Of a DNA stretch of 64,000 nucleotides, positions 3 through 57,571 are shown in pieces. Both the position numbers and the translations under genes were made by a program. Source of the DNA: Candidatus Latescibacterota bacterium (GTDB lineage Bacteria; Latescibacterota; UBA2968; UBA8231). The stretch is from NCBI GenBank assembly GCA_965203175.1, contig OZ241867.1, forward strand, positions 768,001-832,000. Reading direction: 5' to 3'. The notes under the pieces are model-generated. The model was not told the DNA's origin. It searched no databases and saw only the letters and a program-made list of their open reading frames with translations. Numbering within the stretch: the first letter of the stretch is position 1; each line of letters opens with the position of its first letter.

Positions 3-1124
3 CTGCTCCTCGACGAGCCGACCAACCACCTCGACGCCGAGACGGTGGCGTGGCTGGAGGGGCATTTGCATCAGTACCAGGGGACGGTGATCGCCGTCAC
101 CCACGACCGGTATTTTCTCGACAATGTGGCGGGCTGGATTCTGGAGCTGGATCAGGGACATGGCGTACCGTGGAAGGGGAATTACTCGTCGTGGCTAGAG
201 CAGAAAAAGGAGCGCCTGCGGCTAGAAGAAAAAAGCGAGAGCGAAAGACAGCGGACGCTGGAGCGCGAACTGGAATGGATTCGCATGACGCCAAGGGCCA
301 AGCAACAGAAGAACAAGGCCCGGATCAGGGCCTACGAGGAACTGCTAAATCAGGATCGAGTGCAGCGGAACGAGGAGGTGCAGCTCTACATTCCGCCGGG
401 GCCGCGGCTGGGCGATATCGCCATTGAGGCCAAAGGCGTGAGCAAGCGCTACGGCGACCGCATTATCTTCGAGAACATGGATTTCGCGCTGCCCTCGGGC
501 GGGATCGTCGGAGTCATCGGACCCAACGGCGCGGGCAAGACGACCCTGTTCCGGCTGATTACCGGCCAAGAGACCACCGACAGCGGCCAGCTCCACATCG
601 GCGAGACCGTGCAACTGGGATATGTAGATCAGAGCCGGGAAACCCTGGTAGGGGAAAACACGGTCTGGCAGGAAGTCTCGGGCGGCGAGGAAGAGCTTGA
701 GCTGGGCGAGCGCAAGGTAAATTCGCGGGCGTACCTCGCGCGCTTCAACTTCCTCGGTGCCGACCAACAGCAAAAGGTGGGTACGCTCTCTGGCGGACAG
801 CGCAATCGGGTGCATCTGGCCAAGGTGCTCAAAGAGCAGGCCAATGTATTCCTACTCGACGAGCCGACCAACGACCTAGACGTGCATACGCTGCGCGCAT
901 TAGAGGAGGGGTTGGAAAACTTCGCTGGCTGCGTGGTAGTCATCAGCCACGACCGGTGGTTTTTAGACCGCATCGCCACGCACATTCTAGCGTTTGAGGG
1001 CGACAGCCAAGTCTATTGGTTCGAGGGCAACTTTTCGGAGTACGAGGAAAACAAGAAGGCGCGGCTAGGCGAGGATTCCGTCGTGCCTCAGCGAGTCCGC
1101 TACCGCCAACTGACGCGGGACTAA
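3..1124 (+). CDS. ettA: Energy-dependent translational throttle protein EttA (ABC-F family), 5'-truncated by window edge
   Basis: [11 protein letters not shown] in frame from nt 3, [17 protein letters not shown], second ABC domain GPNGAGKT / LSGGQRNR / [10 protein letters not shown]-terminal RYRQLTR. Confidence 0.95.
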
Positions 1125-1143
1125 TTCTGTAGTTCACCACCGC

Positions 1144-2466
1144 TTACATACTATGCAGCGCGCTCTCGACCCTATTGAGCGCTTCGTCGATATCGTCCAA
1201 GGTGTGCTGGGCTGACACGCCGTGGTGGCCGGCGACGAGCGTGCCGTAGTCGTGGAAATAGACCCCTTTGTTGGCGCAGACGCGGATGAATTGCCCGGCC
1301 ATCTCCTGATCGCGGTTGAGGCTATCGTCAAACCGCTCGACCGGATCGGTGAAGCCGAAGAAGATGCCGAAACGCGCACCCAGCCCCTGCACCCGGGCGG
1401 GCACGCCAGCGCGCTCAAACAGTCCGGCCAAACCGTCGCAGAACCGACCTCCAGCTTCATAGATGTGATCGTAAAACCCCGGACTAGTCAGCTCGTTGAC
1501 GGTAGCCAGCGCTGTCATGACGGCCGGCGGGCTGCCGGTGAAGGTCCCACTCTGGGCCACCTCGCCAAGCGGTCCCACCTGGTCCATGATTTCGGCTTTG
1601 CCAGCGATGACGGTGAGCGGAGCGCCAGCGGCGACCGCCTTGCCCAAAACGCAAACATCCGGAGTGACGCCGTAGTACCCCTGCGCGCAGTCGGGCCCAG
1701 TGCGGAAGGCCGAGAGCACCTCGTCGTATATGAGGACGATATCGTGGGCACTGGCTTGGTCGCGGACGAACTGCATGTACTCGGTGTCGGCGACGATGCA
1801 ACCTTGGTTGTAATTGATCGGCTCCATGATGATGCCGCCGATCTCGTCGCCGTGCTCGCGCAGCGCTCTTTCCAAGGCGGCCTCGTCCTTCCACGGCACG
1901 ACGATGATGAGGTCGTCCATCTGCGGAGGCATGCCCGCAGACTCACCACAAGGTTCGACGTAGCTGCCCGGAGTCACCGGCGTCAACGGCGTGTGCGCAT
2001 TGAACATGACGTAGTCGTAAAGACCGTGAAAGTGCCCCCAGAATTTGAGAATCTTGTGCTTGCCGGTATGGGCGCGAGCCAAGCGAACACAGACCATCGT
2101 CGCCTCTGAGCCGGTATTGCCGTAGCGAACGCGCTCGGCGCAGGGGACGATCTCGGTGATCCGCCGCGCCAAGTCAGTATGTGCTTCGGTTTCGTAGCCG
2201 GAGAGAATGCCCGCGTCCACTGCCGCGGTCATGGCCTCGCGCGTTGCCGGGTGGTTGTAGCCCAAAAACGCGGCTCCGTGGGCCAAGTTGAAATCGATGT
2301 ACTCCTTGCCATCGACATCGTAGATGCGGCAGCCCTCGGCATTGCGCAGGTAGAGGGCGTACCCCAGGCATGGGTTGTGCCGTGCCGAAGCGCCGACGCC
2401 TCCCGGCAAGTAGCGCTTGGCTTCGGCTCTGAGATCACTCTGTGACATCGTCTGTATCGTGGACAT
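1144..2466 (-). CDS. Class-III PLP aminotransferase (glutamate-1-semialdehyde aminomutase-like)
   Basis: YDVDGKEYIDF, GNTGSEAT, FHG, IYDEV, PLP lysine in LGKAVAAG; start MSTIQ after AAGGA RBS. Confidence 0.85.
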   Translation of the reverse strand: MSTIQTMSQSDLRAEAKRYLPGGVGASARHNPCLGYALYLRNAEGCRIYDVDGKEYIDFNLAHGAAFLGYNHPATREAMTAAVDAGILSGYETEAHTDLARRITEIVPCAERVRYGNTGSEATMVCVRLARAHTGKHKILKFWGHFHGLYDYVMFNAHTPLTPVTPGSYVEPCGESAGMPPQMDDLIIVVPWKDEAALERALREHGDEIGGIIMEPINYNQGCIVADTEYMQFVRDQASAHDIVLIYDEVLSAFRTGPDCAQGYYGVTPDVCVLGKAVAAGAPLTVIAGKAEIMDQVGPLGEVAQSGTFTGSPPAVMTALATVNELTSPGFYDHIYEAGGRFCDGLAGLFERAGVPARVQGLGARFGIFFGFTDPVERFDDSLNRDQEMAGQFIRVCANKGVYFHDYGTLVAGHHGVSAQHTLDDIDEALNRVESALHSM

Positions 2467-2603
2467 CGCTGTTCGTTCCTTTGTGAAGATAGACTGGTCC
2501 TTTCGCTGTTCCATTATTGTCCTTTTTAATCGCACAAGTCAAGACGCCTTGCCCGAATGACCTTGTGAAGTACCATCCAAAAAGGCAAGTATGCTAATCT
2601 TTT

Positions 2604-2665
2604 TGTCAAATATACTTGACATTACAATTTTTTAGATTATGTTCTTTAGTAAAGCAAGCTTTACT
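2604..2665 (+). promoter_or_regulatory. Sigma70-like promoter with two palindromic operator sites (probable autoregulation by the XRE protein)
   Basis: TTGACA (2616-2621) N16 TATGTT (2638-2643); related inverted repeats TGTCAA-N6-TTGACA (2604-2621) and AGTAAAG-N4-CTTTACT (2648-2665). Confidence 0.6.
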
Positions 2666-2687
2666 TTATGCAAAGGACAGCAGACTT

Positions 2688-3107
2688 ATGGAGAAGCCAA
2701 TGGTCAATTTGAGTTGTCTTACTAGCGGCAGTGCAAAAAACACAATTCGTTTTCTTTGTTGGACCCTTGCTTGGTCAATGACGATGGTGTTGGCCGACAA
2801 AGCGATATTATACGAATGGCATTCCTCTGCTTTGATCTCCGCTATCGCAATTGTCCTCAACGCGGGCATCGGCATCGGCATGATCCTGTCGTATTTGCGC
2901 CATCTGAAATACATGGATGAGCTACAGCGCAAAATCCAACTCGATGCACTGGCTATAGCTATGGGCGTCGCGCTCGTCGGCAGTTTTAGTTATTCGCTGA
3001 TGGTAACTGCAAAATTCATAACGGATGCAGAAGTCTCAGATATCATTTTGCTGATGACGTTTACATTCGTGGTCTCCGTTATCGTTGGCCATATCCGCTA
3101 CCGATGA
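2688..3107 (+). CDS. Small integral membrane protein (4 TM, DELQRKI motif), translationally coupled to XRE regulator
   Basis: Hydrophobic helices around MDELQRKIQLDALA; ATGA overlap with downstream HTH gene. Confidence 0.75.
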   Translation: MEKPMVNLSCLTSGSAKNTIRFLCWTLAWSMTMVLADKAILYEWHSSALISAIAIVLNAGIGIGMILSYLRHLKYMDELQRKIQLDALAIAMGVALVGSFSYSLMVTAKFITDAEVSDIILLMTFTFVVSVIVGHIRYR

Positions 3108-3307
3108 AAAACCGCCTAAAGGTGTTGCGCGCCGAGCGCGACTGGACCCAGGCCGATCTCGCGGAGCGTCTGGAGGTCTCGCGGCAAACGGTGAACGCCC
3201 TAGAAAAGGGCAAATACGACCCCAGTCTGCCGCTGGCATTTAAGATCGCCCACGTGTTTTCCGCGCCGATCGAAGCAATCTTTATACACGAGACGGAAGT
3301 CAGTTGA
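3104..3307 (+). CDS. XRE/Cro-family helix-turn-helix transcriptional regulator
   Basis: MKNRLKVLRAERDWTQADLAERLEVSRQTVNALEKGKYDPSLPLAFKIA is a canonical HTH_3. Confidence 0.93.
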   Translation: MKNRLKVLRAERDWTQADLAERLEVSRQTVNALEKGKYDPSLPLAFKIAHVFSAPIEAIFIHETEVS

Positions 3308-3437
3308 CGCGGGATTAAATTGCACCGCAAAACCTTGCTCCTGTTCTCATTCTAATGTACCGTACACATTAGGACCATATGGCAGAATGTATCTGACTAC
3401 GACTTTTCCTGATGGAGCGGCGTAGCCTCCCTTCACC

Positions 3438-3644
3438 GTGCATACAGAACGCGAAAATACCTTGGACGACACCGAGCGGCTGCAACTCGCCCGCCAAGCC
3501 TTTGCCGACAACTACGCCCGCTGTTTCTGGTATATGCGCCGCGACTTGGAAATAGGCGTCGAAGATATACCCGAGATCGCCCGCGGCTTGCGCCTGCACG
3601 GAGGTCGGCAGGGATTTATTCTGGCCGCCCGCCTATGCCCCTAA
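3438..3644 (+). CDS. Small protein, putative antitoxin partner of downstream nucleotidyltransferase
   Basis: 68-aa ORF overlapping the toxin start; RCFWY motif. Confidence 0.6.
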   Translation: MHTERENTLDDTERLQLARQAFADNYARCFWYMRRDLEIGVEDIPEIARGLRLHGGRQGFILAARLCP

Positions 3645-4426
3645 GCGCGTTTCAGCAATCCATCCTGCGCTTGTTAGCGCAAAACCGCAGCCCAGAAAGC
3701 TATGTAGCTGGTGCTACGGTCCTGCACCAAATTCCCGACAGTCCGCGTTTTTCCGATGACCTAGATATGTTCCACGACGCGGAAGACAGCGTCGCGCGGA
3801 GTGCCGCGTTCGACGTTGCCGTCCTAGACGCGAATGGCTTTGCGATCGAATGGATTTTGCGGCAGCCAGCCTATCTCAGGGCCATCGCGGCGAAGGAAGG
3901 GCAGTCCCTTAGATTGGAGTGGGCTCAGGATTCCGCTTTCCGCTTCTTTCCCGTTGAACAAGACGAACTATGCGGCTACCGCCTGCACCGGGCCGACGCG
4001 GCCACCAACAAGGTGTTGGCTTTGGCCGGACGCCGGGAGGCGCGCGATTTCATCGACGTTCTGCACTTGGACAGCAGCTATCTCTCGTTAGGAGCGCTGT
4101 GTTGGGCAGCCTGTGGGAAAGATCAGGGCTATACGCCGGATTTCTTGCTCAACCAATTGAATCGCAACGCGGCTTTTACCCAAGAGGAAATCCAGCGACT
4201 AGACTTGGCGATCCCCCAGAAGCTACCGGATCTGAAGCGTCAGTGGTGCGCGGCAATGGAGCGGGCCGGTAGATTGCTGACCGCACTGCCTGCGAACGAA
4301 GTGGGTTGCCTCTATCTGGACAGACAACAGTCCGCTCCTGTGCAACCCGACCCAACACACGAGGCATTTGCCTCATTGCAACGACATTTTGGGTCCGTGC
4401 GCGGAGCCTGGCCTACGATCTGTTGA
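3635..4426 (+). CDS. AbiEii/AbiGii (DUF1814)-like nucleotidyltransferase toxin
   Basis: YVAGATVL...RFSDDLDMF and KVLALAGRREARDFIDV motifs. Confidence 0.78.
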   Translation: MPLSAFQQSILRLLAQNRSPESYVAGATVLHQIPDSPRFSDDLDMFHDAEDSVARSAAFDVAVLDANGFAIEWILRQPAYLRAIAAKEGQSLRLEWAQDSAFRFFPVEQDELCGYRLHRADAATNKVLALAGRREARDFIDVLHLDSSYLSLGALCWAACGKDQGYTPDFLLNQLNRNAAFTQEEIQRLDLAIPQKLPDLKRQWCAAMERAGRLLTALPANEVGCLYLDRQQSAPVQPDPTHEAFASLQRHFGSVRGAWPTIC

Positions 4427-4558
4427 ACGGAGCTTCTTTGTCAAAACAGACGATCTCTGAAACTGGACAGAAATAGGTAGTGGGGTATTATGAAAAAAGG
4501 CGGACATAAACACACTTGTTTTATGGGCCTAATCTTGATCGTCTAGGACGATCGGGCT

Positions 4559-5095
4559 TTATGGGCCGAGGCCGCCTCTTCTCCCGAGTACTAAGCTCAA
4601 CCCGATCTCGTTGTAGTTGCCATCAACCCATCGGCTGTAATCAATCTTGACCTGCCAGACAAAGGGTCGCTCTTTCATCGTCTGGTAGCCCAATCCAATT
4701 CCCACAGTGGCATCTTTATCCCCACTGGGAAAGTATCCACCTATTTCCCCCTCTATATAATACCCATCTTGGTTATGCCCTCGCGGGTAATAGGACACGA
4801 TCCCTCCTAGCTTCCGATACCAGGGGTTGGGATAGTCGTCATTACTCCAGGTATAACCCAAGTAGGCATAGGGGCCAAAAGCGGCGTATTGGCTAGGGAA
4901 CCACTTGAGGTAGAGCGCGCGTGTCGAAGGTATGCTTATGGTGATAAATCGGCTATCCTTATCTGCAAGAGACGATACAACACCAAACTGCGCCCCCAGT
5001 TCAAAAGAAAAAGCCGCAAGGGGCCAGCCAAAAACAAGAAGGCTTCCAACACAAAGCTTAGTACACCAGTTCTCTCCAGTAATCCGACGGATCAT
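4559..5095 (-). CDS. Hypothetical exported protein, probable small outer-membrane beta-barrel
   Basis: Signal-peptide-like N-terminus (…PLAAFS), alternating aromatic beta-strands; lower GC than flanks. Confidence 0.55.
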   Translation of the reverse strand: MIRRITGENWCTKLCVGSLLVFGWPLAAFSFELGAQFGVVSSLADKDSRFITISIPSTRALYLKWFPSQYAAFGPYAYLGYTWSNDDYPNPWYRKLGGIVSYYPRGHNQDGYYIEGEIGGYFPSGDKDATVGIGLGYQTMKERPFVWQVKIDYSRWVDGNYNEIGLSLVLGRRGGLGP

Positions 5096-5420
5096 CTATC
5101 CATCTCCAGTAATGGATTTGGGTGACCGTAATATCACGACCGTCAAAAGGCTCTGCAAATCGGTTGCACTCTTGGTCTGCTTAGCTTTTGCTTCTTCCGC
5201 ACCGGGCGTGATAGTGCTTGATTTTGTTTCAAACCCACTGGTAGGTGTTGCAGCAGGTGTCGTAGCCGGACATGTGGGGTCTGAGTATGTAGGACTTAGA
5301 CCAATAATGCCGGTAGTAGGTTCCTTTGAAATCTAGTCGTTGCTGAGTGACTCACTACCATAGAATAACCCCCGATGCAGGTCGAGCACCGGGGGCTATT
5401 CCTGTTAGGTACGATGGCAC

Positions 5421-6236
5421 TCAGGCGATGGCCGCAAGCGCCTTGCGGGCGAAAACCTTGGCCAAGTGACGGCGGTACTCTTCGCCAGCAAAGTGGTCGG
5501 CGAGTACCTCCTGTCCGTCGGCCGCCTGTGCAGCGGCAGCAGCGATCGATTCCTCGCTCAAGCCGCCGCTGAGGGCCTCTTCAACCCCACTATCGCGGAA
5601 GGCCGCATTGGCCACGCCCGTAAAGGCCACCTTCACCGCGCCTCCGGCCGAGGCGACAGCGCAGCCCACCACGGCAAAGCGCGAGGCTGGATGCGGAAAC
5701 TTGACATACGCCGACTTGTCCGCAGCCGAAACTCGCACCTCAGTGATGATCTCATCCGGCGCGAGCGCGGTCAAAAACAGATCGATGAAAAACTCGTCGG
5801 CCGGAATCGAACGCCCGCCGTCGGGTCCCCTGACGACAATCTCAGCCCCCAACGCCAAAATCGCAGCCGGGTAGTCAGCCGCCGGATCGGCGTGGGCCAA
5901 GGACCCGCCAATAGTGCCCTTGTTGCGCACTTGCGGATCGCCGATGACCGAAGCAGCTTGGGCCAAGGCCGAGGCATTGGCACTCACCAAGTCCGAGGAC
6001 GCAATCTGCTGGTGGGTAGTAGTCGCACCAATAGCAATGGTGCCGCCGTCCTCTCTGATGTAGTTGAGCTCGGCGATCCGGCCAATGTCGATCAGCGCGC
6101 CCGGTGACGACAGGCGCAGCTTCATGGCCGGCAACAGGCTGTGGCCGCCAGCTAAGAGCTTGGCGTCGTCCGAGAGGAGCTCAATCGCCTCATCTACTGA
6201 AGAGGGACGATGATAGTCAAACGCGACAGGTATCAT
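5421..6236 (-). CDS. coxM: Xanthine dehydrogenase/CODH family FAD-binding (medium) subunit
   Basis: LAGGHSLLP, QVRNKGTIGGSLAHADPAAD motifs. Confidence 0.92.
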   Translation of the reverse strand: MIPVAFDYHRPSSVDEAIELLSDDAKLLAGGHSLLPAMKLRLSSPGALIDIGRIAELNYIREDGGTIAIGATTTHQQIASSDLVSANASALAQAASVIGDPQVRNKGTIGGSLAHADPAADYPAAILALGAEIVVRGPDGGRSIPADEFFIDLFLTALAPDEIITEVRVSAADKSAYVKFPHPASRFAVVGCAVASAGGAVKVAFTGVANAAFRDSGVEEALSGGLSEESIAAAAAQAADGQEVLADHFAGEEYRRHLAKVFARKALAAIA

Positions 6237-6249
6237 GGTCGTCTTCTCC

Positions 6250-8622
6250 TTAGCTGGCTTGTTGGATGGCCTGCCACACCTTCTGCGGCGTCAGCGGCAT
6301 AGCCAAGTCGCGCACGCCCAAAGGCCACAGGGCATCAATTACGGCGTTGACAATGGCCGGCGGCGAGCCAATCGTGCCGGTCTCGCCAGCACCCTTGACG
6401 CCGAGAGGATTGTGCGGGCAGGGCGTGACAGTGTGGTCGGTTTCAAAGGAAGGCAAGTCGTCGGCGCGCGGCAGGACGTAGTCCATGTACGAGCCAGAAA
6501 TGAGCTGGCCACTGTCGTCGTACACAGCCTCCTCAAACAGGGCTTGGCCAATGCCGTGCGTAATGCCGCCGTGGACTTGGCCTTCGACGATCATGGGATT
6601 GACGATATTGCCCACGTCGTCAACAGCGACGTAGCGCCGCACCGCAACCACGCCGGTCTCGGCATCCACCTCCACGACCGCGATGTGAGCACCGAAGGGA
6701 AAGGTAAAATTGGCCGGGTCGTAGAAGCTGGTAAACTCCAACCCCGGCTCCAGCCCCTCGGGAAAATTGTGCGGCACGTACGCGGCCAGTGAGACCTCGC
6801 CAAAGGAGATTGACTGGTCGGTGCCCTTGACCGTCCAACTGCCCTCGGCGAATTCGAGGTCTTCCTCGGCGGCTTCGAGCAAGTGGGCCGCGATCTTGGC
6901 CCCCTTCTCCTTGATCTTGTCCATGCTCTTGACGATGGCTGTGCCGCCGACAGCCAGCGAGCGCGAGCCGTACGTGCCCATGCCAAAGGGCACGGACTCG
7001 GTGTCGCCGTGAATGATATCCACGTCTTCGATCCCCACGCCCAACCCATCGGCCACCACCTGGGCGAAGGTCGTCTCGTGCCCCTGCCCGTGCGAGTGGC
7101 TGCCGGTGAAGACCGTGACTTTGCCGGTCGGCTGGACGCGGACGCCCGCGCTCTCAAACAGGCCAGCGCGCGCACCTAATGCGCCAACCACGGCCGAGGG
7201 CGCGATACCGCAGGCCTCGATATAGGTCGAAAAGCCAATGCCGATATGGCGACCGTTGCCAGCGGCGCGCACCTGTGCCTGCTCTGCGCGCAGTTCGTCG
7301 TAGCCGATGGCCGCGAGGGCCTTTTCGAGCGCGGCCCCGTAGTTGCCGCTGTCGTATTGCAGGGCCACTTGGGTCTGATAGCCCTCCTGCTCGACGCCGT
7401 CAAAGGCTGGGATAAAGTTTTGGCTCCGCAGTTGGGCCGGGTCGCGGCCCGTCTCCAAGGCAGCCTGCTCAATAGTGCGCTCGAGGACGTACGTGGCCTC
7501 GGGGCGGCCCGCGCCACGCAGAGCATCAACTGGCGTAGTGTTGGTGAAGACGCCGGTGACATCGACGTGGACCGCCGGGGTCGTGTACAACCCCTGCAAA
7601 AGCGTGCCGTAGAGATACGTGGGCACGCACGGCGCAAAGGTCGATAGGTACGCGCCGAGGTTGGCGACGGTCTTGACCCGCAGGCCGACGAAATTCCCAT
7701 CGGCGTCGAGGCCGAGATCTACCTTGGTGTGATGGTCGCGGCCGTGGGCGTCGGTGAGGAATGCCTCGCTGCGGCTGGCAGTCCACTTGACCGGACGGCC
7801 AATCTGGCGCGAGCACCACGTGACGAGGACTTCTTCGGCGTAGTGAAAAATTTTCGAGCCAAAGCCACCGCCCACATCCGGCGACACCACGCGCACCTTG
7901 TGCTCGGGCAGACCCAAGACAAACGCCGTCATCAGCAGGCGAATGACGTGGGGGTTCTGCGACGAGGTGTAGAGCGTGTAGTGGTCGCGCGCGCCGTCGT
8001 AATCGCCGATGGCGCAGCGCGGCTCAATCGCGTTGGGGATGAGCCGTTGGTTGTCGAACTCCAACGTGGTGATGTGCGCGGCGCTGGCCAAGGCGGCGTC
8101 CGTGGCCGCTTGATCGCCGAGCTCCCAGTCGAAGGGCGTGTTGTTGGGCACATCGTCGAACAACTGCGGCGCGCCCTCGGCCGTCGCTTGGGTTGCCGCG
8201 ACGACCGCGTCCAAAACCTCGTACTCCACGGCCACCAACTCAGCGGCGTCCGCAGCTTGTTCGCGGCTCTCGGCCAAGACGATGGCAACCGGGTCGCCGA
8301 CGTGGCGCACCTTGGTCGCAGCCAACACCGGATGGGCCGGCTCCTTCATGGTGTCGCCACTTTTGAAATCCACCTGCCAGCCGCAGGGCAGGCCGCCGAC
8401 GCCAGCAGCTTCGAGGTCGGCACCCGTAAAGACGGCGACCACGCCATCGGCTGCGGCTGCGGCCGTCGTATCGACGTTATTGATCGCGGCGTGGGCATGC
8501 GGGCTGCGCACGAGCGCCGCAAAGGTCGAGTTGGGCAGGGCAATGTCATCGGTGTAGCGACCCTTGCCGGTGATAAAGCGCTGGTCTTCGACGCGCTTGA
8601 CGGATTGTCCTATGACTCCCAT
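6250..8622 (-). CDS. coxL: Xanthine dehydrogenase family molybdopterin-binding large subunit (form-II CoxL-like)
   Basis: [39 protein letters not shown] motifs; lacks form-I AYxCSFR. Confidence 0.9.
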
Positions 8623-8631
8623 AGCGGCCTC

Positions 8632-9096
8632 CTATGCGCTTTCGGCGGCGTGTTGGACCGCCTTGATGATGTTGTCGTAGCCCGTGCAGCGGCAAAAGTT
8701 GCCTTCGAGCGCGTGGCGAACCTCCGCGTCGCTGGGCGTTGCATTGCGCTCTAGCAACTGCCAAGCGGCCATGATCATGCCGGGCGTGCAAAAGCCGCAC
8801 TGCAAGCCGTGGGTCTCGCGGAAGGCTTCCTGTAGCGGGTGCAGCGTGCCGTTGGCCGCAAGCCCTTCGATGGTCGTTATCTCCGCGCCGTCGGCTTGCA
8901 CCGCAAGCATGGTGCAGACCTTGACGGCTTGGCCATCGACGATAGCGGTACAGGCACCGCAGTTGCTGGTGTCGCAGCCAACGTGCGTGCCCGTCAGGCC
9001 CAACTCATCGCGCAAATAGTTGACGAGCATCTGGCGCGGCTCCACCTCGTGCTCGTGGGTCTGACCGTTGACAGTGACCTTGATTGCTACTGACAT
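8632..9096 (-). CDS. coxS: (2Fe-2S)-binding small subunit of molybdenum hydroxylase
   Basis: [25 protein letters not shown]; AAGGAGG RBS. Confidence 0.93.
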
Positions 9097-9113
9097 AGCC
9101 ACCTCCTTGAATG

Positions 9114-9180
9114 GAATTGCGAATTGCGAATTGCGAATTGCGGCCGGGGCCGGGAATTCGCAATTCCTAATTCCTAATTG
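9114..9180. repeat. Heptamer tandem repeat (GAATTGC x4) with inverted degenerate heptamers, forming a hairpin
   Basis: GAATTGC at 9114, 9121, 9128, 9135; AATTCGC AATTCCT AATTCCT AATTG at 9155-9180. Confidence 0.85.
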
Positions 9181-9613
9181 ACACTTCGCGCTCCAGCGCC
9201 TTAAAAAACTGATTGGTAAACATCCGCGCCACGCCCGAGAGCAGGCGCTGCCCCATGCTCGCCAACCGGCCCGTCAACTGCGAGCCGCCCTCGACTTCCA
9301 CCGTGGTCGTCTCGTGGTCTTGGTCAGTGAGCTGGACGTGGCCCTCGGCCGCGATCTGGCCGATTTTGCCATCGACGTCGATGAGCAGGCGATAGCTTTC
9401 CGGCTCCTTGCTATCGACGACTTGCAGCGCACCGTTGAAGGTACTGTTGATCGGTCCCATTTTGATGTGCAGCACAGCTTGGTACTGGCCGGGGCCAGTT
9501 TGCTCCAAGGTATCGACACCTGGCGTGATGCGCGCCAACACCTCGGGATCGTTGAGCAAGTCCCACATGACTTGCCTTGGGGCGCGAAAAGTATGAGAAC
9601 CTGCAAGCTGCAT
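9167..9613 (-). CDS. coxG: CoxG / SRPBCC-domain accessory protein
   Basis: [32 protein letters not shown] motifs; adjacent to coxS. Confidence 0.85.
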
Positions 9614-9770
9614 GGGCCGATACTATTGTTAAGGGCCAGAAGCAAGTGACGCGGTGGTGGATAGTACAAAATTTTGCCTGTCTTTGTCAATCAAGTGATT
9701 GCTCTGCCAGCTAAAGCAGGCGGTCTTACGGCGAGTTGGATAAGCTAACGCAGCGGAGCGACGGATTGAG

Positions 9771-10370
9771 ATGACCAGATTCGCAAATCTTAGCGGAATC
9801 GTGCTAGCGGCGGGGCGTTCCTCCAGGATGGAGGGTACCAATAAGTTGCTGCTGCCTTGGAAGGAGCAATGCGTCCTTCAAGTCGTGGTGGAGCAGGTCT
9901 GCGAGGTGGGTTTGGGGGAAGTGGTCGTGGTGACAGGGCATCAGCGGACAGAGGTAGAGGAAGCACTGAGCCGCTATCCCGTGCGGCTGGTACACAACCC
10001 AGATTTTGCCGAGGGAATGGCCGCCTCTATCAGAGTGGGCGTGGAAGAGGCAGTCGGCGAGCAAGGGTATCTCTTTGCCCTAGGAGATATGCCGCAGATA
10101 GCTGGTACGACGATGCTAAAGGTCGCCGAGGCGTTGAAAAGCAGCGAGACTATCGCCGTGCCAGTGAGCAACGGGCGACGCGGCCATCCAGTAGCTATCG
10201 GCAGCGCCTATCGAGATGCCTTGCTCGCGTTGATTGGCGATCGGGGAGCGCGGCCAGTCTTGAAAAAAAACGCAGCCAGCGTCGTCGAAGTACCCGTTGA
10301 GGACGAGGGCATCTTCGTGGATGTGGATACGCGGGAAAGCTATCGAGCGGCGCGGACCGCATTGCAATAG
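9771..10370 (+). CDS. mocA: Molybdenum cofactor cytidylyltransferase (MocA-like nucleotidyltransferase)
   Basis: IVLAAGRSSRM..NKLLL, LGDMP, GHPV, GDRGAR, DVDT motifs. Confidence 0.85.
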   Translation: MTRFANLSGIVLAAGRSSRMEGTNKLLLPWKEQCVLQVVVEQVCEVGLGEVVVVTGHQRTEVEEALSRYPVRLVHNPDFAEGMAASIRVGVEEAVGEQGYLFALGDMPQIAGTTMLKVAEALKSSETIAVPVSNGRRGHPVAIGSAYRDALLALIGDRGARPVLKKNAASVVEVPVEDEGIFVDVDTRESYRAARTALQ

Positions 10371-10375
10371 AACAA

Positions 10376-11179
10376 TTAACCAACCAATAGCTGCAGCGCG
10401 GTTTCCACGTTCAACATCGCCGCGTCTTCCTCCCGTTCCAAAAACGGACGCACATCGGCCGCCACCTGATCCCACTCCAGCACCCGTAGCCGGCTGCCGA
10501 CCACTTCCCGCCAAGTCCGCTCCGTTAGTGCCTCGCCAGGCCACTGCGTCTGCTGCAACGCCGCATTGAGTAGAGATAGATTGGGCGCAGGCCACGTCCG
10601 GTCACTCAAGTACCATATCAAGTCGTATAGATCCCGCCCTTTGGTATAAGGGCGCTGTAGGATCGCATGTAGTTTGCCGGCTAGCAGGGAAGCTCGGTCG
10701 TGATGCTGGAGCCGCAGTGTCACGTGTCGGCGCACCAAACGGGTCTCCAGCACGACACCAGTTGGCGGGTTCGTATCGACCTCGATGCGCACGGAGAGAA
10801 TTGCGTCTTGATGCGGAGAAAGACCGGCCTCGTACAGCAGGCCCTTGAAGCGCACGAACGCGCGGTGGACGGTCTGCCGGTCGTTTAAGCCGAGCCCGAC
10901 TTCGTACCCCTCGCGAGCAAATTCTGCGCGAATGGCTGTTAAATAAGCGCGCAAATCGTAGAGAGCCGGATCGCCTTCGAGCGTAAAGTCGAGGTCTTCG
11001 GAGTAGCGCGGTAGCGCAAAGAGAAAGCGCAGGCTAGTGCCCCCCTGAAACGCCAGCGGCACCATCGCCCCCGCGCGCTGTAAAGCATCCAAGATGCGGG
11101 CTTGCAAGTATTCGCGCAGGATGTTGCGCCCCTGCAAGGAATCCGCCGCCTGCACGAGTTGAAACAGGTGATACTTCAT
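10376..11179 (-). CDS. abiEii: AbiEii-family nucleotidyltransferase toxin (type IV TA)
   Basis: FQGGTSLR, RYSEDLDF, KLHAILQR..KGRDLYDL; ATGA overlap with antitoxin. Confidence 0.9.
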   Translation of the reverse strand: MKYHLFQLVQAADSLQGRNILREYLQARILDALQRAGAMVPLAFQGGTSLRFLFALPRYSEDLDFTLEGDPALYDLRAYLTAIRAEFAREGYEVGLGLNDRQTVHRAFVRFKGLLYEAGLSPHQDAILSVRIEVDTNPPTGVVLETRLVRRHVTLRLQHHDRASLLAGKLHAILQRPYTKGRDLYDLIWYLSDRTWPAPNLSLLNAALQQTQWPGEALTERTWREVVGSRLRVLEWDQVAADVRPFLEREEDAAMLNVETALQLLVG

Positions 11180-11814
11180 AGCTGCTCGTAGCCCAACGTC
11201 TCGTCTTGGGCTAGTGAGCGAATGCACCGCACGGCTCTCAGTAACTTGGGACGGGCGGCGATAGCAGCCAATCTATCCAGTTCCGCTAGGTCGAGGCTCC
11301 CCCAGTCGAGGCGCAGCTCATTGATATAGGCAGGTGCATCACCACTCGGCTGCAGATAGATCAGATCGAGCAGTGCCTTTTCTGGCGCAGCGACAAAAGC
11401 CAACTGGCCATGTGCCAACTCCACGTGTTGATAGCCGTAGAGCAGATCGGTCTTGAGGTGGCGAAAGGAAAAGCGACCTAGCGGCGTCTGGCGGAGCTGC
11501 GGACGTCCGGCCGTCACACTGGTCACTTCCGGCACGTACTCGGGAATCACACCAGCGTGGGCCAACGCCGACAGACCGCTGACATACGAGCCGCGCACCA
11601 GTCGATTGGCGACGAGGAAGGGATGGGGCGCGGTCTGGCGGTAGGGCGGCGCCAGCGCGTAGAGCCCGCGCCGTAGCTGGTGCAGTCGTCCAGCTTGGGT
11701 CCAGCGCACGAGCTGCCGCCGCATATCGCTTGGATTTACGGACCCAGCCAAGAGCAGGCCGGTTTCAAATACCGGCTCATCGGCCACAATGGCGAGCAAT
11801 TGATCGAATTTCAT
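11176..11814 (-). CDS. abiEi: AbiEi-family antitoxin / wHTH regulator (type IV TA)
   Basis: LRRGLY, SYVSGLSAL, PEKALLDLIY motifs; directly upstream of abiEii. Confidence 0.85.
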   Translation of the reverse strand: MKFDQLLAIVADEPVFETGLLLAGSVNPSDMRRQLVRWTQAGRLHQLRRGLYALAPPYRQTAPHPFLVANRLVRGSYVSGLSALAHAGVIPEYVPEVTSVTAGRPQLRQTPLGRFSFRHLKTDLLYGYQHVELAHGQLAFVAAPEKALLDLIYLQPSGDAPAYINELRLDWGSLDLAELDRLAAIAARPKLLRAVRCIRSLAQDETLGYEQL

Positions 11815-11816
11815 AA

Positions 11817-11846
11817 CAATAAATTACCTTTAATGGCAATTTATTG
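11817..11846 (-). promoter_or_regulatory. Inverted-repeat operator upstream of abiEi
   Basis: CAATAAATTACC-N6-GGCAATTTATTG (1 mismatch) immediately 5' of the start codon; AbiEi proteins are known to autoregulate at promoter inverted repeats. Confidence 0.55.
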
Positions 11847-11867
11847 CAATAAAACATGCTTTTGTCG

Positions 11868-14198
11868 TCACTCCTCCGGCGGCACCAAGCGCTGCGTCGT
11901 CTCCGCCCGGTCGCGTATCTCCTGCCAATCCCACAACTGAGGTATGAATTCCACATCGGCCCAAAGCTGGGCTTGGTCGGCGTAGTGCGGGCTAGCCGGG
12001 TGGCCGGAGGCCCCCAGCGGCGCGATCCAGCGCGAGCGGGTCCAGTCGGAGGGATCGAAGATATAGCGGTTGACCGAAAGACCCGTAACTGTGAAGTCGT
12101 CGAAGGCGTAGCTGCCGGCTAGGGGCGTATCGCCATCGCCGTGGACGGAGAGCGAAGGGGGGTCGAGAAAGGAAGCGGCCTCGGGAAAAACCACAGAGAA
12201 TGGGTGCTGAGGTCGGGTGCAGTGCAATCGGCCCCAACTCCATTGGCTCATGTCGTCGCCAAGAGCCTCTTTGAGAGCAGCGAGCGCGCCGGTCAAGGCC
12301 CCGGTCAGAGCCTGGGACCAAGTTTGACCGGACGGTAGCAGTGCCGTATCGCCGCGCTCAATAGCGAGAGTCGCTTCGAGGGTGATGAGACGCCAGTGGG
12401 CGTCGCCGCCAGCCTCTGCGAGCAAGGTCATGGCGTCGCCGCCAAATAGGTTCTGCGCGATGTGGTAGCCAAGTAGGGCGCGGGTTTGCGCATAGATCGT
12501 CGGCTGGACTTGGTCGCGGTCCATCCGGCAGTCCCACTGGCGCAGCAAATCGAGAGCTTGGGCGCAGTCGGCGTCGGGCGGATCGATGGCGAGCAAGGCC
12601 CGCGTAAAGACCTGGGCCGGCAGCGAGACGCATTCGGCGTGGATGCGGCCCATCGCCTCGGGCGTGGCCGTGCCCTTTGCCAGTTCGAGAATGCGGGTCT
12701 GGATGCGGCGGGCGCGGTAGTCGGGGCTAAAGACGAGCCCGACGTAGTAGGGATAATCCGGGCCGGTCACGCGCTGGTTGCAGGTGATGGCATAGCCCGT
12801 TGCGGGGTCTATGGCCTTGGGCAACTCGGCGTGGGGGATGTAGCCCTGCCACTCGTGCTCGCCGCTCCAGCCGGGAACGGCGCGCCAGCCGTTTGCAGCC
12901 TCGCGCACCGGGATCCGGCCCTCGTGCAGATAACCGAAGCAGCCGTGGACATCGGCGACGGCGTAGTTGTTGACGCGGTCGTTCCAGCGGGCGAAAGCTT
13001 GGTGCAAGTCCTCGACCGAGCGGGCGCGCATGGCATCGCGGGCCGCGTCGGCCCAAGGAGTACCTTCGATGAGGCCGGGGTCGCTGATGGCGATGGCCTG
13101 ACCTTTGCGCGGGTCTCCAGCGATGATAGGTCCGTGGTGGGTAATGACGACCTCAGCGGTAACGGATGCCGCGCCGCGGACGTGGATTTCTTCCCGCAGG
13201 ATTTCCGCTGGCCGCCACGCGCCGCTGAATTCGTACTCCAAGCCATCGGCCGTTTCGCGAAAGCGCTCGACGAACAGATCTTGGGTATCTGCACTGCCGT
13301 AGGTCATGCCCCAAGCCACGTACTCGTTGTGGCAAAAGTGCAGGGTGCCGGGGACGCCGGGCACAGAATAGCCGCTGACGGCGAAGTCGGGGCAGGCGAT
13401 ATGGACTTGGTAATAGACGGAAGGAGTGTCGAGGCCGCGGTGTGAGTCGCCGGCCACCAGCGGCAAGCCCGAATCCGTGTACTCTCCCGCGATGGACCAC
13501 GCATTGGAGCCGGGGTCGGTCTCGCGGCTGAGGGCCGTGAGGCCGTCGAGAGGTTCTCCCTGGTACTCAGCGCCGGGAGGCACGGTGAGCAGGTGGCCTT
13601 GGGGATAGCCTTTGATTAACTGAGCAAGGTTCGCGGCCACAATACTGTAGCCGGACTGCTCAGGGCCGACGACTTGGGCCAGACGAGTGCGCCAGAGCTT
13701 GGATTCAAAGGTGCCGAGCAGGCTGTTGCGCATCTTGTACACAGCGAGGCAGTGCCAGCTTTCCCACGGCTCGGGGCGCTGGCCGAGGAGTTGGTACTCA
13801 ACAGGCAGGGCCGTTGTCGTCGCCAAAAAGGCGTTGACGCCAGCGGCGTACGCGTCGAGCATGGCGCGAGCTTGGGGACTGGACGCTTCGTAGTCCAACT
13901 TGGCGGTGCGGCCCATGCCCGCGGCGCGCAAAAGGCGGTCGCGGTCCAGTCCTGCAGGGCCAGCCCATTCAGACCAGCGGCCCAAAGCCTGATGGCGATC
14001 GAAGTCCATATGCCACAGGCGGTCTTGAGCCGTGGCAAAGCCCTGAGCGAAGAACATATCGGCTTCGCCTTCAGCTTGGATATGGGGGATTCCCCAAGGA
14101 TCGCGGTGGATGGTGACGGTATTTTCAAGGCCCTCGCAACACTGGGTGCTTTCGAGGTCGGGAAGGGCGGCTTGAAGGTCTTCGGCACTGATAGGCAT
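11868..14198 (-). CDS. Penicillin acylase family Ntn-hydrolase (peptidase S45; possible AHL acylase)
   Basis: RDPWGIPHI, AQDRLWHMD, GSNAW nucleophile site, GASGHPASPHYADQ. Confidence 0.92.
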   Translation of the reverse strand: MPISAEDLQAALPDLESTQCCEGLENTVTIHRDPWGIPHIQAEGEADMFFAQGFATAQDRLWHMDFDRHQALGRWSEWAGPAGLDRDRLLRAAGMGRTAKLDYEASSPQARAMLDAYAAGVNAFLATTTALPVEYQLLGQRPEPWESWHCLAVYKMRNSLLGTFESKLWRTRLAQVVGPEQSGYSIVAANLAQLIKGYPQGHLLTVPPGAEYQGEPLDGLTALSRETDPGSNAWSIAGEYTDSGLPLVAGDSHRGLDTPSVYYQVHIACPDFAVSGYSVPGVPGTLHFCHNEYVAWGMTYGSADTQDLFVERFRETADGLEYEFSGAWRPAEILREEIHVRGAASVTAEVVITHHGPIIAGDPRKGQAIAISDPGLIEGTPWADAARDAMRARSVEDLHQAFARWNDRVNNYAVADVHGCFGYLHEGRIPVREAANGWRAVPGWSGEHEWQGYIPHAELPKAIDPATGYAITCNQRVTGPDYPYYVGLVFSPDYRARRIQTRILELAKGTATPEAMGRIHAECVSLPAQVFTRALLAIDPPDADCAQALDLLRQWDCRMDRDQVQPTIYAQTRALLGYHIAQNLFGGDAMTLLAEAGGDAHWRLITLEATLAIERGDTALLPSGQTWSQALTGALTGALAALKEALGDDMSQWSWGRLHCTRPQHPFSVVFPEAASFLDPPSLSVHGDGDTPLAGSYAFDDFTVTGLSVNRYIFDPSDWTRSRWIAPLGASGHPASPHYADQAQLWADVEFIPQLWDWQEIRDRAETTQRLVPPEE

Positions 14199-55210: not shown

Positions 55211-56182
55211 TCAGTTGTCCCACGTCAATAATACCGCCATCGTCTCGCCCAACCGATTGTAGAGCAAATCGAAGGCCGCTGCCGCTTCGGTGTAGGGGAA
55301 GCGGTGAGTGATCATCTTGGCGAACTGGATCTGGTCTGTAGCCAGCAACTCTAACGTACGCGCCGATCCTTCGGGCCGCCGACTAGCGTCGAGATAGCTG
55401 CCTATGAGGCGCTTGCCCATGATTTTTTCTGAATAGAGCGGCAGAGGTTCGTTCTCGTACAGGCCCAGCACCTGCAAGAGGCCGCCGCTCTTGAGCATGT
55501 CCTGCGCCTCGGCAAAAGCCTGTGCCCCAGCCCGCCCGCCCACGGCTTCGACCACGATGTCGGCACCCTTCCCGTCCGTCAGCTCCAAGACCTGTGCGAC
55601 CGGATCGCCAGCGCTGGCGTCAATCATCTCGTCAACCCCCAACTCGCGCGCCAGTTCACAGCGCAAGGGCAAAGTGTCAATCCCAATGACGCGCCCCGCG
55701 CCCTGTGCCTTGGCCGCCTGCATACAACCGCTGCCGACCAAGCCCTGCCCCTGTATGACCATGACATCGTCCGGGCCGGCCCCGGTCTCCCACATCCACA
55801 GGACCGAACTGGTTCCCAGCGGCCAAAAGGTGCCCGCCTCGGGCGACAGGCCCGCGGGCAGGCGCACGGCCGCAGGCTGGTGCCGGCTGGCTCCGACTTC
55901 GACCGCCACGTATTCGGCGTGCGGCGCAAGCGCCGCGACCAAGTCTCCGACTTTGAACTCCTCGACCTCTGCACCCACCTCTGCGACTCGGCCCACCAGC
56001 GAGTAGCCCATGGAGCGGTGGTCGATAGCCTCTTCGCGCACGTAGCGCCGCCAAATCTCCGAGCCTCGGCTGATCAGCGAACATTCGGCGCGAATCAAAA
56101 TCTCGGTCGAGGCAATGGCCGGGGTCTCGACCTCTTCTACTACGATATTATAGGCCCCTGCGGGCTTGGCGATGCGTTTCAT
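55211..56182 (-). CDS. MDR-family (zinc-binding dehydrogenase-like) oxidoreductase
   Basis: ISRGSE, GYS.VG, GQGLVG, MITHRF; GAGGAGG RBS. Confidence 0.85.
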   Translation of the reverse strand: MKRIAKPAGAYNIVVEEVETPAIASTEILIRAECSLISRGSEIWRRYVREEAIDHRSMGYSLVGRVAEVGAEVEEFKVGDLVAALAPHAEYVAVEVGASRHQPAAVRLPAGLSPEAGTFWPLGTSSVLWMWETGAGPDDVMVIQGQGLVGSGCMQAAKAQGAGRVIGIDTLPLRCELARELGVDEMIDASAGDPVAQVLELTDGKGADIVVEAVGGRAGAQAFAEAQDMLKSGGLLQVLGLYENEPLPLYSEKIMGKRLIGSYLDASRRPEGSARTLELLATDQIQFAKMITHRFPYTEAAAAFDLLYNRLGETMAVLLTWDN

Positions 56183-56248
56183 AGACGGCCTCCTCGCGGA
56201 CAATATGGCAAAAATACCGCGCGTGAACCAACCTAGTTCAACGCGGGC

Positions 56249-56287
56249 AAAAAAAACCGGGCGCACCCTAAGGTGGGGTGCGCCCGG
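56249..56287 (-). terminator. Strong intrinsic terminator
   Basis: 12-bp stem CCGGGCGCACCC/GGGTGCGCCCGG followed by T8 on the minus strand. Confidence 0.9.
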
Positions 56288-56548
56288 CTGTACTCTCAGA
56301 AGCTATGCCGCCGAGGCGACTGTGCTTCTGACCAGGTAGTCGATCACCTGGAGTTGATCAAGTGATCAACCTCCCTGCGGTACGTTTACTACTCAATGGA
56401 CCACCTCCTTTCGCTGTGCGCGCCTCATATCCATACTCCAACTCTGCGCGTCGTTGCGGCCAATTGCAAAGTCGGGTTGGCCCGCTCGCGTAGCCTCGAG
56501 CCTCAGCATAGCGGCAACAGGGGTTTGAGGCCCCCGAACTCGACTCGA
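56249..56548 (-). ncRNA. Candidate structured RNA / micro-ORF transcript with extended 16S-complementary Shine-Dalgarno
   Basis: Multiple hairpins, GAAAGGAGGTGGTCCA (56397-56412), 12-codon ORF 56358-56396, own terminator; no family recognised. Confidence 0.5.
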
Positions 56549-56578
56549 TTTTAATATGACAAACGCCACAGAACCATG

Positions 56579-57571
56579 TCAAATGCTTTTTACTTTCACC
56601 GGCTGCCCGCTAGCGGCCGAGGCCCATGCCGCTTCGGTCAGTTCAATGACCCGCAGGCCGCATTCGGGGGGCACCTGCACCTGATCGCGGCCGAGAATCG
56701 CGTCGATGAAATTCTGGTCGGGCGTCGTCGAGCCGGGCAAGTTATTTACTTCGTACACCTCGTTGCTGTGCTGCGTCTTGTAAAAGATCTGTCCCCGGCG
56801 TATATAGACCGCGGCCTTGGTCCCCCAGATGGTGATGTCCTCCCATATCCCGCTGGCCGGCGAGTTGCCCACCACCGCAATCGTCCCCAGCGCGCCGTTG
56901 CCAAAGCGCAGCGACAGCGCCGAGTTGATGTCCACTTCGGAGTCTAAATACTCCATGTAGGCCTGCACTTCCGCCACCTCTAACCCGGTCATCCACAACA
57001 CAATGTCCAGTAGGTGGCTTCCCGAGTCGTTGAGCTGTCCGCCGCCCGACAGCGCCATTTGCTGCCGCCACAGTCCGATCGTCCCCTGGTACCACTTCTG
57101 GTCTTGGAGCGCCGATATAAATTGGATGTCCCCCAATTCCCCGGCCGCAATCTGGTTGCGCACATAGCGGTACTGCGCCTGCAAGTGCCGCTGATAGGAA
57201 ATCATTACGAGCTTGTCGGTCTCCTCGGCTTTGGCGATAACTTGGCGCGCGTGATCGACAGTACAGACCATCGGCTTTTCGGTCAGCACGTGCAGCCCTT
57301 TGTCCAGCGCGGCCATAATCTGCTCAAAGTGCAATGTGTGGGGCGTGGAAATTTCTACCGCATCCAGTTCGACTTGCTCCAGCATCTCTTGGTAGTGGGT
57401 AAACTCCGGCAACTCCGCGGCCTGCGAGTTGCGCTCTTTGGCTCGCTGCAGACTGGCCTGATCCACATCACACAACGCCACCACTTCGGCCTCGGGGATG
57501 TCGAGAACCCGCCCTAGGTGCCCGCTGGCATTTCCACCACAGCCGATAAATCCCACGCGAATCTTGTCCAT
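56579..57571 (-). CDS. Gfo/Idh/MocA family oxidoreductase
   Basis: GFIGCG, TPH..H, EKPM, GGQLNDSGSH. Confidence 0.92.
   Translation of the reverse strand: MDKIRVGFIGCGGNASGHLGRVLDIPEAEVVALCDVDQASLQRAKERNSQAAELPEFTHYQEMLEQVELDAVEISTPHTLHFEQIMAALDKGLHVLTEKPMVCTVDHARQVIAKAEETDKLVMISYQRHLQAQYRYVRNQIAAGELGDIQFISALQDQKWYQGTIGLWRQQMALSGGGQLNDSGSHLLDIVLWMTGLEVAEVQAYMEYLDSEVDINSALSLRFGNGALGTIAVVGNSPASGIWEDITIWGTKAAVYIRRGQIFYKTQHSNEVYEVNNLPGSTTPDQNFIDAILGRDQVQVPPECGLRVIELTEAAWASAASGQPVKVKSI

Follow-up and report, generated by a model that had tools for sequence, protein, structure and literature searches.

A candidate class-wide RNA family of Candidatus Latescibacterota with an extended Shine–Dalgarno sequence, a conserved micro-ORF and two alternative predicted folds

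The stretch of DNA considered here (the window; 64,000 nt of a Candidatus Latescibacterota genome, with positions counted from its first letter) contains, between two minus-strand genes, a unit that raises the question of what a short RNA would do with a sequence able to pair with the 3′ end of the 16S rRNA when this sequence precedes an open reading frame (ORF) of 12 codons. The flanking genes encode a GFO/IDH/MocA oxidoreductase (stop at 56579) and a Zn-dehydrogenase-like protein (56182–55211). A preliminary description, made from the letters of the window, had proposed ribosome sequestration, a small peptide, or attenuation as possible functions. The genome, a single contig of 6.58 Mb, was scored as 93% complete with 6.5% contamination, and closed relatives gave similar values; the completeness marker set probably fits this lineage poorly. 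The features of the unit are collected in Table 1.

Table 1. Features of the RNA unit, in window positions and in the order of transcription.
Feature	Position	Strand	Description
Promoter, sigma-70 type	56553–56582	minus	TTGACA (56582–56577), 18-nt spacer, CATATT (56558–56553)
5′ structured domain	56413–56546	minus	3′ end formed by a GC-rich hairpin and an A-rich linker
SD1	56397–56412	minus	GAAAGGAGGTGGTCCA; complement of the 16 3′-terminal nt of the organism's 16S rRNA, including one G:U pair
Micro-ORF	56358–56396	minus	TTG start (56396–56394), 12 codons (MSSKRTAGRLIT), TGA stop (56360–56358)
SD2	56369–56375	minus	GGGAGGT inside the micro-ORF; GGAGG core ends 9 nt before the stop
Strand A (putative switch strand)	56359–56368	minus	Last codons of the ORF; partner SD1 or C5′
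Strand C5′	56341–56351	minus	CCAGGTGATCG; partner strand A (fold Y) or C3′ (local hairpin)
Strand C3′	56332–56338	minus	TACCTGG, 16S anti-SD-like; partner C5′ or SD2
Variable hairpin	56296–56331	minus	TCAGAAGC...GCTTCTGA, inner stem GTCGCC/GGCGG
Intrinsic terminator	56249–56289	minus	14-bp stem (56289–56255) followed by a T-run

The promoter, the terminator, and contigs from RNA libraries bear out the earlier proposal of a discrete, structured, and independently transcribed minus-strand RNA. The CATATT previously described as -10-like proved to be part of a TTGACA-18-CATATT promoter, which showed 10 of 12 matches in a promoter scan (one site found, compared to 0.1 in shuffled sequences) and was conserved across 30 related loci. 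A regular expression detected a promoter-like site in 37 of the 43 loci sharing the layout of the window RNA (type 1, see below), and a terminator-like hairpin followed by at least five T, a criterion of our own, occurred in 32/43. Transcription would start near 56546, and promoter and terminator enclose approximately 300 nt of the minus strand. The RNA folds with a predicted energy of −135.2 kcal/mol (z = −4.74), and none of 200 shuffled sequences was as stable. Both the stem TCAGAAGC/GCTTCTGA and the strong terminator reported previously are present; in this variable hairpin, alignment pair 229/259 occurs as AU (17), GU (8), CG (2), and GC (2), and the inner stem shows compensatory changes as well. 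Between the terminator and the Zn-dehydrogenase-like gene lies a TTGGTT-18-CATATT-like sequence (56202–56231, minus strand), which is kept in congeneric loci and fell below the criterion of the promoter scan.

Contigs of four metatranscriptome runs, belonging to three studies, were aligned to positions 55800–57000 and covered the unit in all four, which speaks for its presence in RNA libraries rather than for strand, ends, or true level. Summed word depth across the four runs ranged from 13,413 to 508,519 at 56415–56496 and from 226 to 11,930 at 56292–56373, compared to only 0–226 over the flanking genes. Depth was zero at 56538–56701 in the four runs, where absence of cover is not evidence of absence. 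The highest values belonged to contigs at 56415–56537, upstream of SD1, although contig depth is unsuited to ranking regions within one gene. Read literally, these values suggest that most molecules may be a 5′ fragment without the SD, and such a dominant fragment would be a poor fit to a simple ribosome sponge. Sequences that we take to be library adapters abut the RNA at 56397 (three runs) and at 56415–56430, weakly hinting at RNA 3′ ends at or just before SD1.

Regarding its distribution, BLAST searches showed that 28 of the 30 genomes of the genus carry the stretch (82–95% identity), and the two negative genomes were 58% and 75% complete. The relatives available in the public genome collection are metagenome-assembled genomes. 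A covariance model built from the RNA core (R1) matched 69 of the 75 genomes of the family, with one copy in each positive genome. In other families of the class, R1 was positive in 3/3 genomes of family f3, 3/22 of f4, and 0/31 of f2, and 36 genomes from further families of the phylum gave no match. The 13-mer GAAAGGAGGTGGT was found in 126/132 genomes of the class, mostly once, including 31/31 of f2 and 21/22 of f4; it alone detected a second group of relatives (type 2), which R1 missed. A composite pattern, consisting of the 13-mer, a TG within 3–12 nt, and GGAGGT within 9–30 nt, was present in 121 of 168 genomes of the phylum, compared to a single match for the reversed control. Judged from these comparisons, the RNA is a member of a class-wide family.

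Two layouts can be distinguished within this family. Type 1, which includes the window RNA and is found in families f1, f3, and part of f4, is composed of a 5′ domain of 58–180 nt, the module of SD, micro-ORF, and switch strands, and a short 3′ part. Type 2, found in f2 and f4, begins approximately 8–12 nt before SD1 without the type-1 5′ domain. It continues with an ORF of 11 codons, opened by an ATG at 7 nt and closed by TAG, after which come a 3′ domain of approximately 200 nt and a terminator. Both layouts co-occur in three f4 genomes (G062, G063, and G064), one of which carries the composite pattern twice, and for this reason they look like paralogues rather than replacements of one another. 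In many f2 and f4 genomes the type-2 RNA is located downstream of what appears by eye on the DNA to be the C-terminus of an ABC-transporter permease (L153–L164). The composite pattern was also observed once each in G133 and G139, which belong to family f6 of another class; here the spacer is longer, and a possible 8-codon ORF is followed by AGGAGGT.

The surroundings of the RNA vary. A methionyl-tRNA synthetase gene and the GFO gene are situated upstream in four genera, whereas on the downstream side the gene changes from genus to genus and frequently has the opposite orientation; one genus has the RNA flanked on both sides by opposite-strand genes. Since the neighbors vary, the RNA is best considered a stand-alone gene. 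In several genera (L102, L104, L105, L106, L109, L114, L121, L128), haem-synthesis genes adjoin the RNA divergently on the opposite strand, namely those encoding glutamyl-tRNA reductase, an amine-oxidase-type enzyme, and a URO-D-like protein. The same variation bears on the possibility that the RNA is a cis-acting leader-peptide attenuator of the Zn-dehydrogenase-like gene. In favor of such a role, the RNA combines an ORF resembling a leader with alternative hairpins and ends in a terminator ahead of a gene on the same strand, and in each of two RNA runs one contig crosses the terminator into that gene. However, attenuation of a downstream gene, as suggested earlier, does not agree with the variable and often oppositely oriented neighbors, no switch strand overlaps the terminator stem, and a conserved promoter-like sequence follows the terminator. 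We consider this explanation extremely doubtful.

The pairing capacity toward the ribosome was examined against the genome's own 16S rRNA gene, the single one detected, which terminates in ...GGCTGGATCACCTCCTTTC. Plus-strand positions 56397–56412 (TGGACCACCTCCTTTC) are identical to its 3′ end at 15 of 16 positions, so the match first described against the common bacterial sequence holds for the organism itself. The lone mismatch of the 16-mer becomes a G:U pair in the minus-strand RNA, and GAAAGGAGGUGGUCCA can consequently base-pair over the full final 16 nt of the 16S rRNA, again in agreement with the preliminary description. The additional claim that this exceeds a normal SD by far stands only in part. 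On the one hand, SD1 is the only non-rRNA site of the 6.58-Mb genome within two mismatches of the 16-mer. On the other hand, its contiguous Watson–Crick complementarity amounts to 11 nt, and 13 other non-rRNA sites of the genome reach 11–12 nt, several of them preceding ATG genes. As a very strong SD, SD1 is thus not the only one of its kind, and the presence of strong SDs before ordinary genes indicates that the organism uses them in general. Given these 11–12-base SDs, SD1 may simply be a strong SD as far as its sequence is concerned, and its length alone does not establish the ribosome sequestration suggested earlier.

What is special about SD1, judging from the alignment, is its conservation. 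The sequence AAGGAGGTGGT was kept in 49/49 aligned homologues, and the GAAA facing the terminal bases of the 16S rRNA was invariant in 48 of the 49 type-1 sequences. The occurrence of GAAA in these sequences and in 126/132 genomes of the class exceeds the needs of an SD and would accord with a device that guards or checks the mature 16S 3′ end, either shielding the anti-SD tail from exonucleases or testing new 30S subunits. This purely inferential reading appears very unlikely to us, and the first bases of the actinobacterial relatives discussed below are GGAA instead.

Downstream of SD1, the TTG at 7 nt from its GGAGG and the ORF of 12 codons are present as described previously. Among 68 aligned homologues (49 of type 1 and 19 of type 2), a start codon is located 6–11 nt after SD1 in every sequence (TTG in 30, GTG in 9, ATG in 29), and it opens an ORF of 9–13 codons in all 68, closed by TGA in 44, TAG in 21, and TAA in 3. 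The stop follows SD2 by 7–12 nt in 68/68 and by 9–10 nt in 66/68. One genus without the TTG possesses an in-frame ATG 4 nt further on. The range of 9 to 13 codons across lineages implies that every insertion or deletion kept the frame. When spacers were shuffled, a comparable ORF was retained in 10% of trials, a fraction that is not a probability because the 68 homologues are related by descent. The frame of the micro-ORF is also open for 74 codons upstream (56358–56582, minus strand), up to a TTG inside the -35 box; this is probably due to chance, since the 5′ domain contains no in-frame ATG and differs between genera.

The earlier suggestion of a small peptide is borne out for the conserved micro-ORF and weakened for a functional peptide, whose sequence is not conserved, with the internal SD-like motif read in all three frames. 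The encoded peptides include MSSKRTAGRLIT, MSSTSTTGRWIT, MSSSIPLRRSTT, MESTGRSIT, and MSSCIPVGGATT, as well as MSEMTSGGGCR in type 2, and they end in ...GRLIT, ...GGATT, ...GGGCR, or ...EVAAS in different subfamilies. This use of SD2 in all three frames is seen across the type-1 subgroups, type 2, and members of the Ms_IGR-5 family (see below), and the GGAGG motif is translated as either G-R or G-G, depending on the group. Residue conservation coincides with the RNA motifs SD2 and strand A, which encode the conserved positions. Within the genus, about six non-synonymous versus three synonymous changes were counted by eye on the alignment.

These data bear on the possibility that the RNA is an mRNA for an abundant peptide of 9–13 amino acids, whose promoter, SD, and structured ends maximize yield while its folds tune translation or stability. 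The ORF persists in 68/68 homologues even where one valid start or stop codon has been replaced by another, which would fit such an mRNA, as would a serine at positions 2–3 for which different lineages use AGT, AGC, TCT, and TCA; position 3 of the type-2 peptides is D or E in 19/19 sequences, so some selection on the peptide is conceivable. However, the peptide is wholly different between subfamilies, its conserved residues are dictated by SD2 and strand A, and the distance from SD2 to the stop is kept while the reading frame of SD2 changes. In type 2, codon 4 is invariant at its third base, which pairs with the flank of SD1, and varies at the first two. The neighboring genes vary and include none for maturation or export. 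We therefore regard a peptide function as somewhat unlikely.

The folding of the RNA was evaluated on a 49-sequence type-1 alignment (A4). The two further SD-like motifs of the preliminary description, SD2 and CCAGGTG (56351–56345, minus strand), are both present; the separate hairpins assigned to them are explained better by a helix between the two regions or by pairing of SD1 with strand A plus a hairpin. In the first of these arrangements (fold Y), SD2 and strand A pair with strand C, leaving SD1 and the start codon free. Here 93.5% of alignment cells were paired, compared to 23–49% in slid controls, three pairs had both sides changed (10, 5, and 16 cells), and none of 500 shuffles matched the covariation score. 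In the second (fold X), strand A folds back on the AGGUGGU of SD1 and closes it, while strand C forms its own hairpin. Fold X was paired in 99.1% of cells, with strand A varying solely by GC/GU and UA/UG exchanges that always preserve its pairing with SD1, itself invariant. The G by which SD1 deviates from perfect 16S complementarity pairs with a U or C of strand A. As SD1 is invariant, the SD1:A helix lacks two-sided covariation and is not provable by this means. Constrained energies placed the folds close together (median Y minus X, +1.1 kcal/mol). Two mutually exclusive and conserved pairings were thus found for one strand, one of them covering SD1, which is the arrangement of an SD/anti-SD/anti-anti-SD switch.

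The covariation supports the forward helix of fold Y, and the predicted pairings suggest that strand A toggles between SD1 and the downstream strand. Outside type 1 the signal is lower: the SD1:A helix of type 2 is weak, with four wobble pairs and no covariation, and the type-2 and Ms_IGR-5 alignments showed little covariation in general, part of strand A in the latter being dictated by the search pattern. Per-sequence minimum free energy folds of the full RNA gave no consistent partner for SD1, and a pairing of SD1 with the GCCGCC of the 5′ domain showed no compensatory change. The GGGAGGTTGATCA/TGATCAACTCC hairpin of the preliminary description was considered and rejected; it could form in the genus of the window, whereas other genera have a variable loop in place of its second strand. 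Conservation of the RNA is lowest in the 5′ domain, which measures about 58 nt in some genera and up to about 180 nt in others. Its proposed closing helix AGTCGAGTT/AACCCGACT was paired in 89.2% of cells in 29 congeners, compared to 13–55% in slid controls, with three cells having both sides changed, and RNAalifold prefers another partner for the 3′ strand; formation of this helix is plausible from the sequences.

The same elements could be read as those of a trans-acting base-pairing sRNA, in which strand A, strand C3′, or the 5′ domain would pair with the SD region of target mRNAs, exposure of this seed being gated by translation of the micro-ORF. The two conserved anti-SD-like strands are consistent with this, as are the abundance of the RNA, its own promoter and terminator, and the deepest contig cover, which falls on the 5′ domain. 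In contrast, the anti-SD-like strands are paired in both folds, and the 5′ domain is both variable and missing from type 2, which makes this role quite improbable in our view.

With respect to known RNA families, the preliminary description had named a match to a known family, lack of transcription, and lack of conservation in relatives as reasons to abandon it. In the Rfam search of the window, no family reached its gathering score on this RNA, while contigs from RNA libraries cover the unit and both the SD and the ORF are conserved. The best weak Rfam match on the strand of the element was CC2171 (RF01867), with 23.9 bits versus a gathering score of 75, and membership was rejected on this score. 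The alignment was confined to the first 27 or so positions (SD and start) and the terminator, and the CC2171 model had no match in the whole genome, with a Caulobacter control being positive. By its consensus, to which the comparison is limited, CC2171 resembles the window RNA in that it opens with the complete 16S 3′-end complement and continues with GUG, hairpins, and a terminator. The study bioRxiv 10.1101/2022.01.24.477521 describes CC2171 as a Northern-validated alphaproteobacterial sRNA of unknown function.

A closer likeness was found to the actinobacterial sRNA Ms_IGR-5 (RF02471; gathering score 45 bits). The window RNA was rejected as a member, as the model gave no match at E ≤ 10 in 56100–56700 and none in the whole genome, a search that was also positive in 0/14 control genomes. 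Type-2 loci of the sister families, in contrast, scored 23–41 bits (threshold 45) in 7/8 loci, with E-values down to 2e-7. To obtain relatives of Ms_IGR-5, metagenomes were scanned with two short motifs from its consensus, yielding more than 119 stretches, of which 80 loci were analyzed. Among these, 76/80 carried a start, an ORF of 12–18 codons, and a stop 11 nt after an internal GAGG, and 17 of the 20 loci tested were true members with 52–195 bits. One contig with such a member (L178, 790–963) bears a c-di-AMP riboswitch about 2 kb away.

The likeness concerns the module itself. The SD of Ms_IGR-5 is GGAAGGAGGTGGTC, compared to GAAAGGAGGTGGTC in the window RNA, and the start follows 7–13 nt later; the ORF of 12–18 codons contains an internal GAGGTGG with the stop 11 nt after the motif. 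The Ms_IGR-5 combination of AAGGAGGUGGUC, a short ORF with an internal GAGGUG, and a stop approximately 10 nt later is complete in the window RNA, and the first stem given by Rfam for Ms_IGR-5 corresponds to the SD1:A pairing. However, the SD of Ms_IGR-5 lies at the extreme 5′ end, whereas that of the window RNA lies about 135 nt in, behind a structured domain. The 3′ domain of Ms_IGR-5, a conserved single-stranded stretch with a terminal hairpin, likewise differs from the short 3′ part of the window RNA, the peptides are unrelated, and the phylum is different. Type 2 shares the layout of Ms_IGR-5. The literature search returned nothing on the window RNA or on a micro-ORF in Ms_IGR-5, although supplementary files may list such ORFs. 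According to the literature, Ms_IGR-5 is expressed, validated, uncharacterized, NAD-capped, and present in one copy in Streptomyces lividans, and PMC4974804 reports ribosome-protected reads for its homologues.

Other RNA classes were considered in turn. A tmRNA was rejected, as that of the genome is located elsewhere (RF00023, 200.6 bits) and the window contains no Rfam match to it. A 6S RNA (RF00013) appears less likely: no match was found in the window or the genome with a model that is insensitive, being positive in 5/14 controls, and the predicted fold of the window RNA is branched, not a 6S-like rod. A sponge of the CsrB/RsmZ type was rejected, given that CsrA is absent from this genome and present in 4/30 congeners, compared to 28/30 for the RNA.

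Leader-peptide attenuators of the erm/cat type provide another point of comparison; in these, a ribosome on a short ORF re-pairs downstream strands and exposes the SD of a resistance gene. Like them, the window RNA has a short ORF that is preceded by an SD of its own and extends at its 3′ end into alternative hairpins. It differs in that no ORF follows the switch and the downstream neighbors vary.

Considering the above, the reading that we favor, with about an even chance of being correct, is that of a ribosome-responsive riboregulator in which the engagement of ribosomes, and not the peptide, is selected, so that the RNA would act as a buffer, a parking site, or a sensor of free ribosomes. 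Ribosomes would load on SD1 and translate the micro-ORF. Since strand A comprises the last codons of the ORF, a translating ribosome must melt it from either fold, and this melting would reset the switch. Possible outputs include occupancy of 30S or 70S particles, exposure of the anti-SD-like strands, and control of the RNA's own processing or stability. It is the joint selection of ribosome loading, a short translation run, and a toggling strand that leads us to read this RNA as a ribosome-responsive switch.

A more specific version of this proposal, which we hold to be unlikely, is a device that parks ribosomes and guards the anti-SD. An abundant RNA would hold 30S or 70S particles by base pairing that extends over as many as 16 nt at the 3′ end of the 16S rRNA, translation of the micro-ORF would release the ribosome and re-close the RNA, and SD2 would hold the terminating ribosome; in different layouts, the device would be shared with Actinobacteria (Ms_IGR-5) and perhaps with Alphaproteobacteria (CC2171). 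The anti-SD region is where the protein hibernation factors RMF and HPF sit. Were the parking reading correct, the RNA would share their target, namely the 16S 3′ tail, but they are proteins, and HPF co-occurs with the RNA. Replacement of HPF by the RNA was rejected: HPF is encoded in 119/132 genomes of the class, including this one, without anticorrelation, and this co-occurrence indicates that the RNA does not take its place.

As a single-copy RNA that is near-universal in its class and deeply covered in metatranscriptomes, it would rank with the housekeeping RNAs. The conserved entity is a micro-ORF with an extended SD inside a predicted two-state fold, not a peptide. The same module is found in true members of Ms_IGR-5, an sRNA family of mycobacteria and streptomycetes that has been listed for more than a decade without a mechanism, and this makes the hypothesis genetically testable. 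If the parking reading were true, these RNAs would represent a new way to control the pool of free ribosomes.
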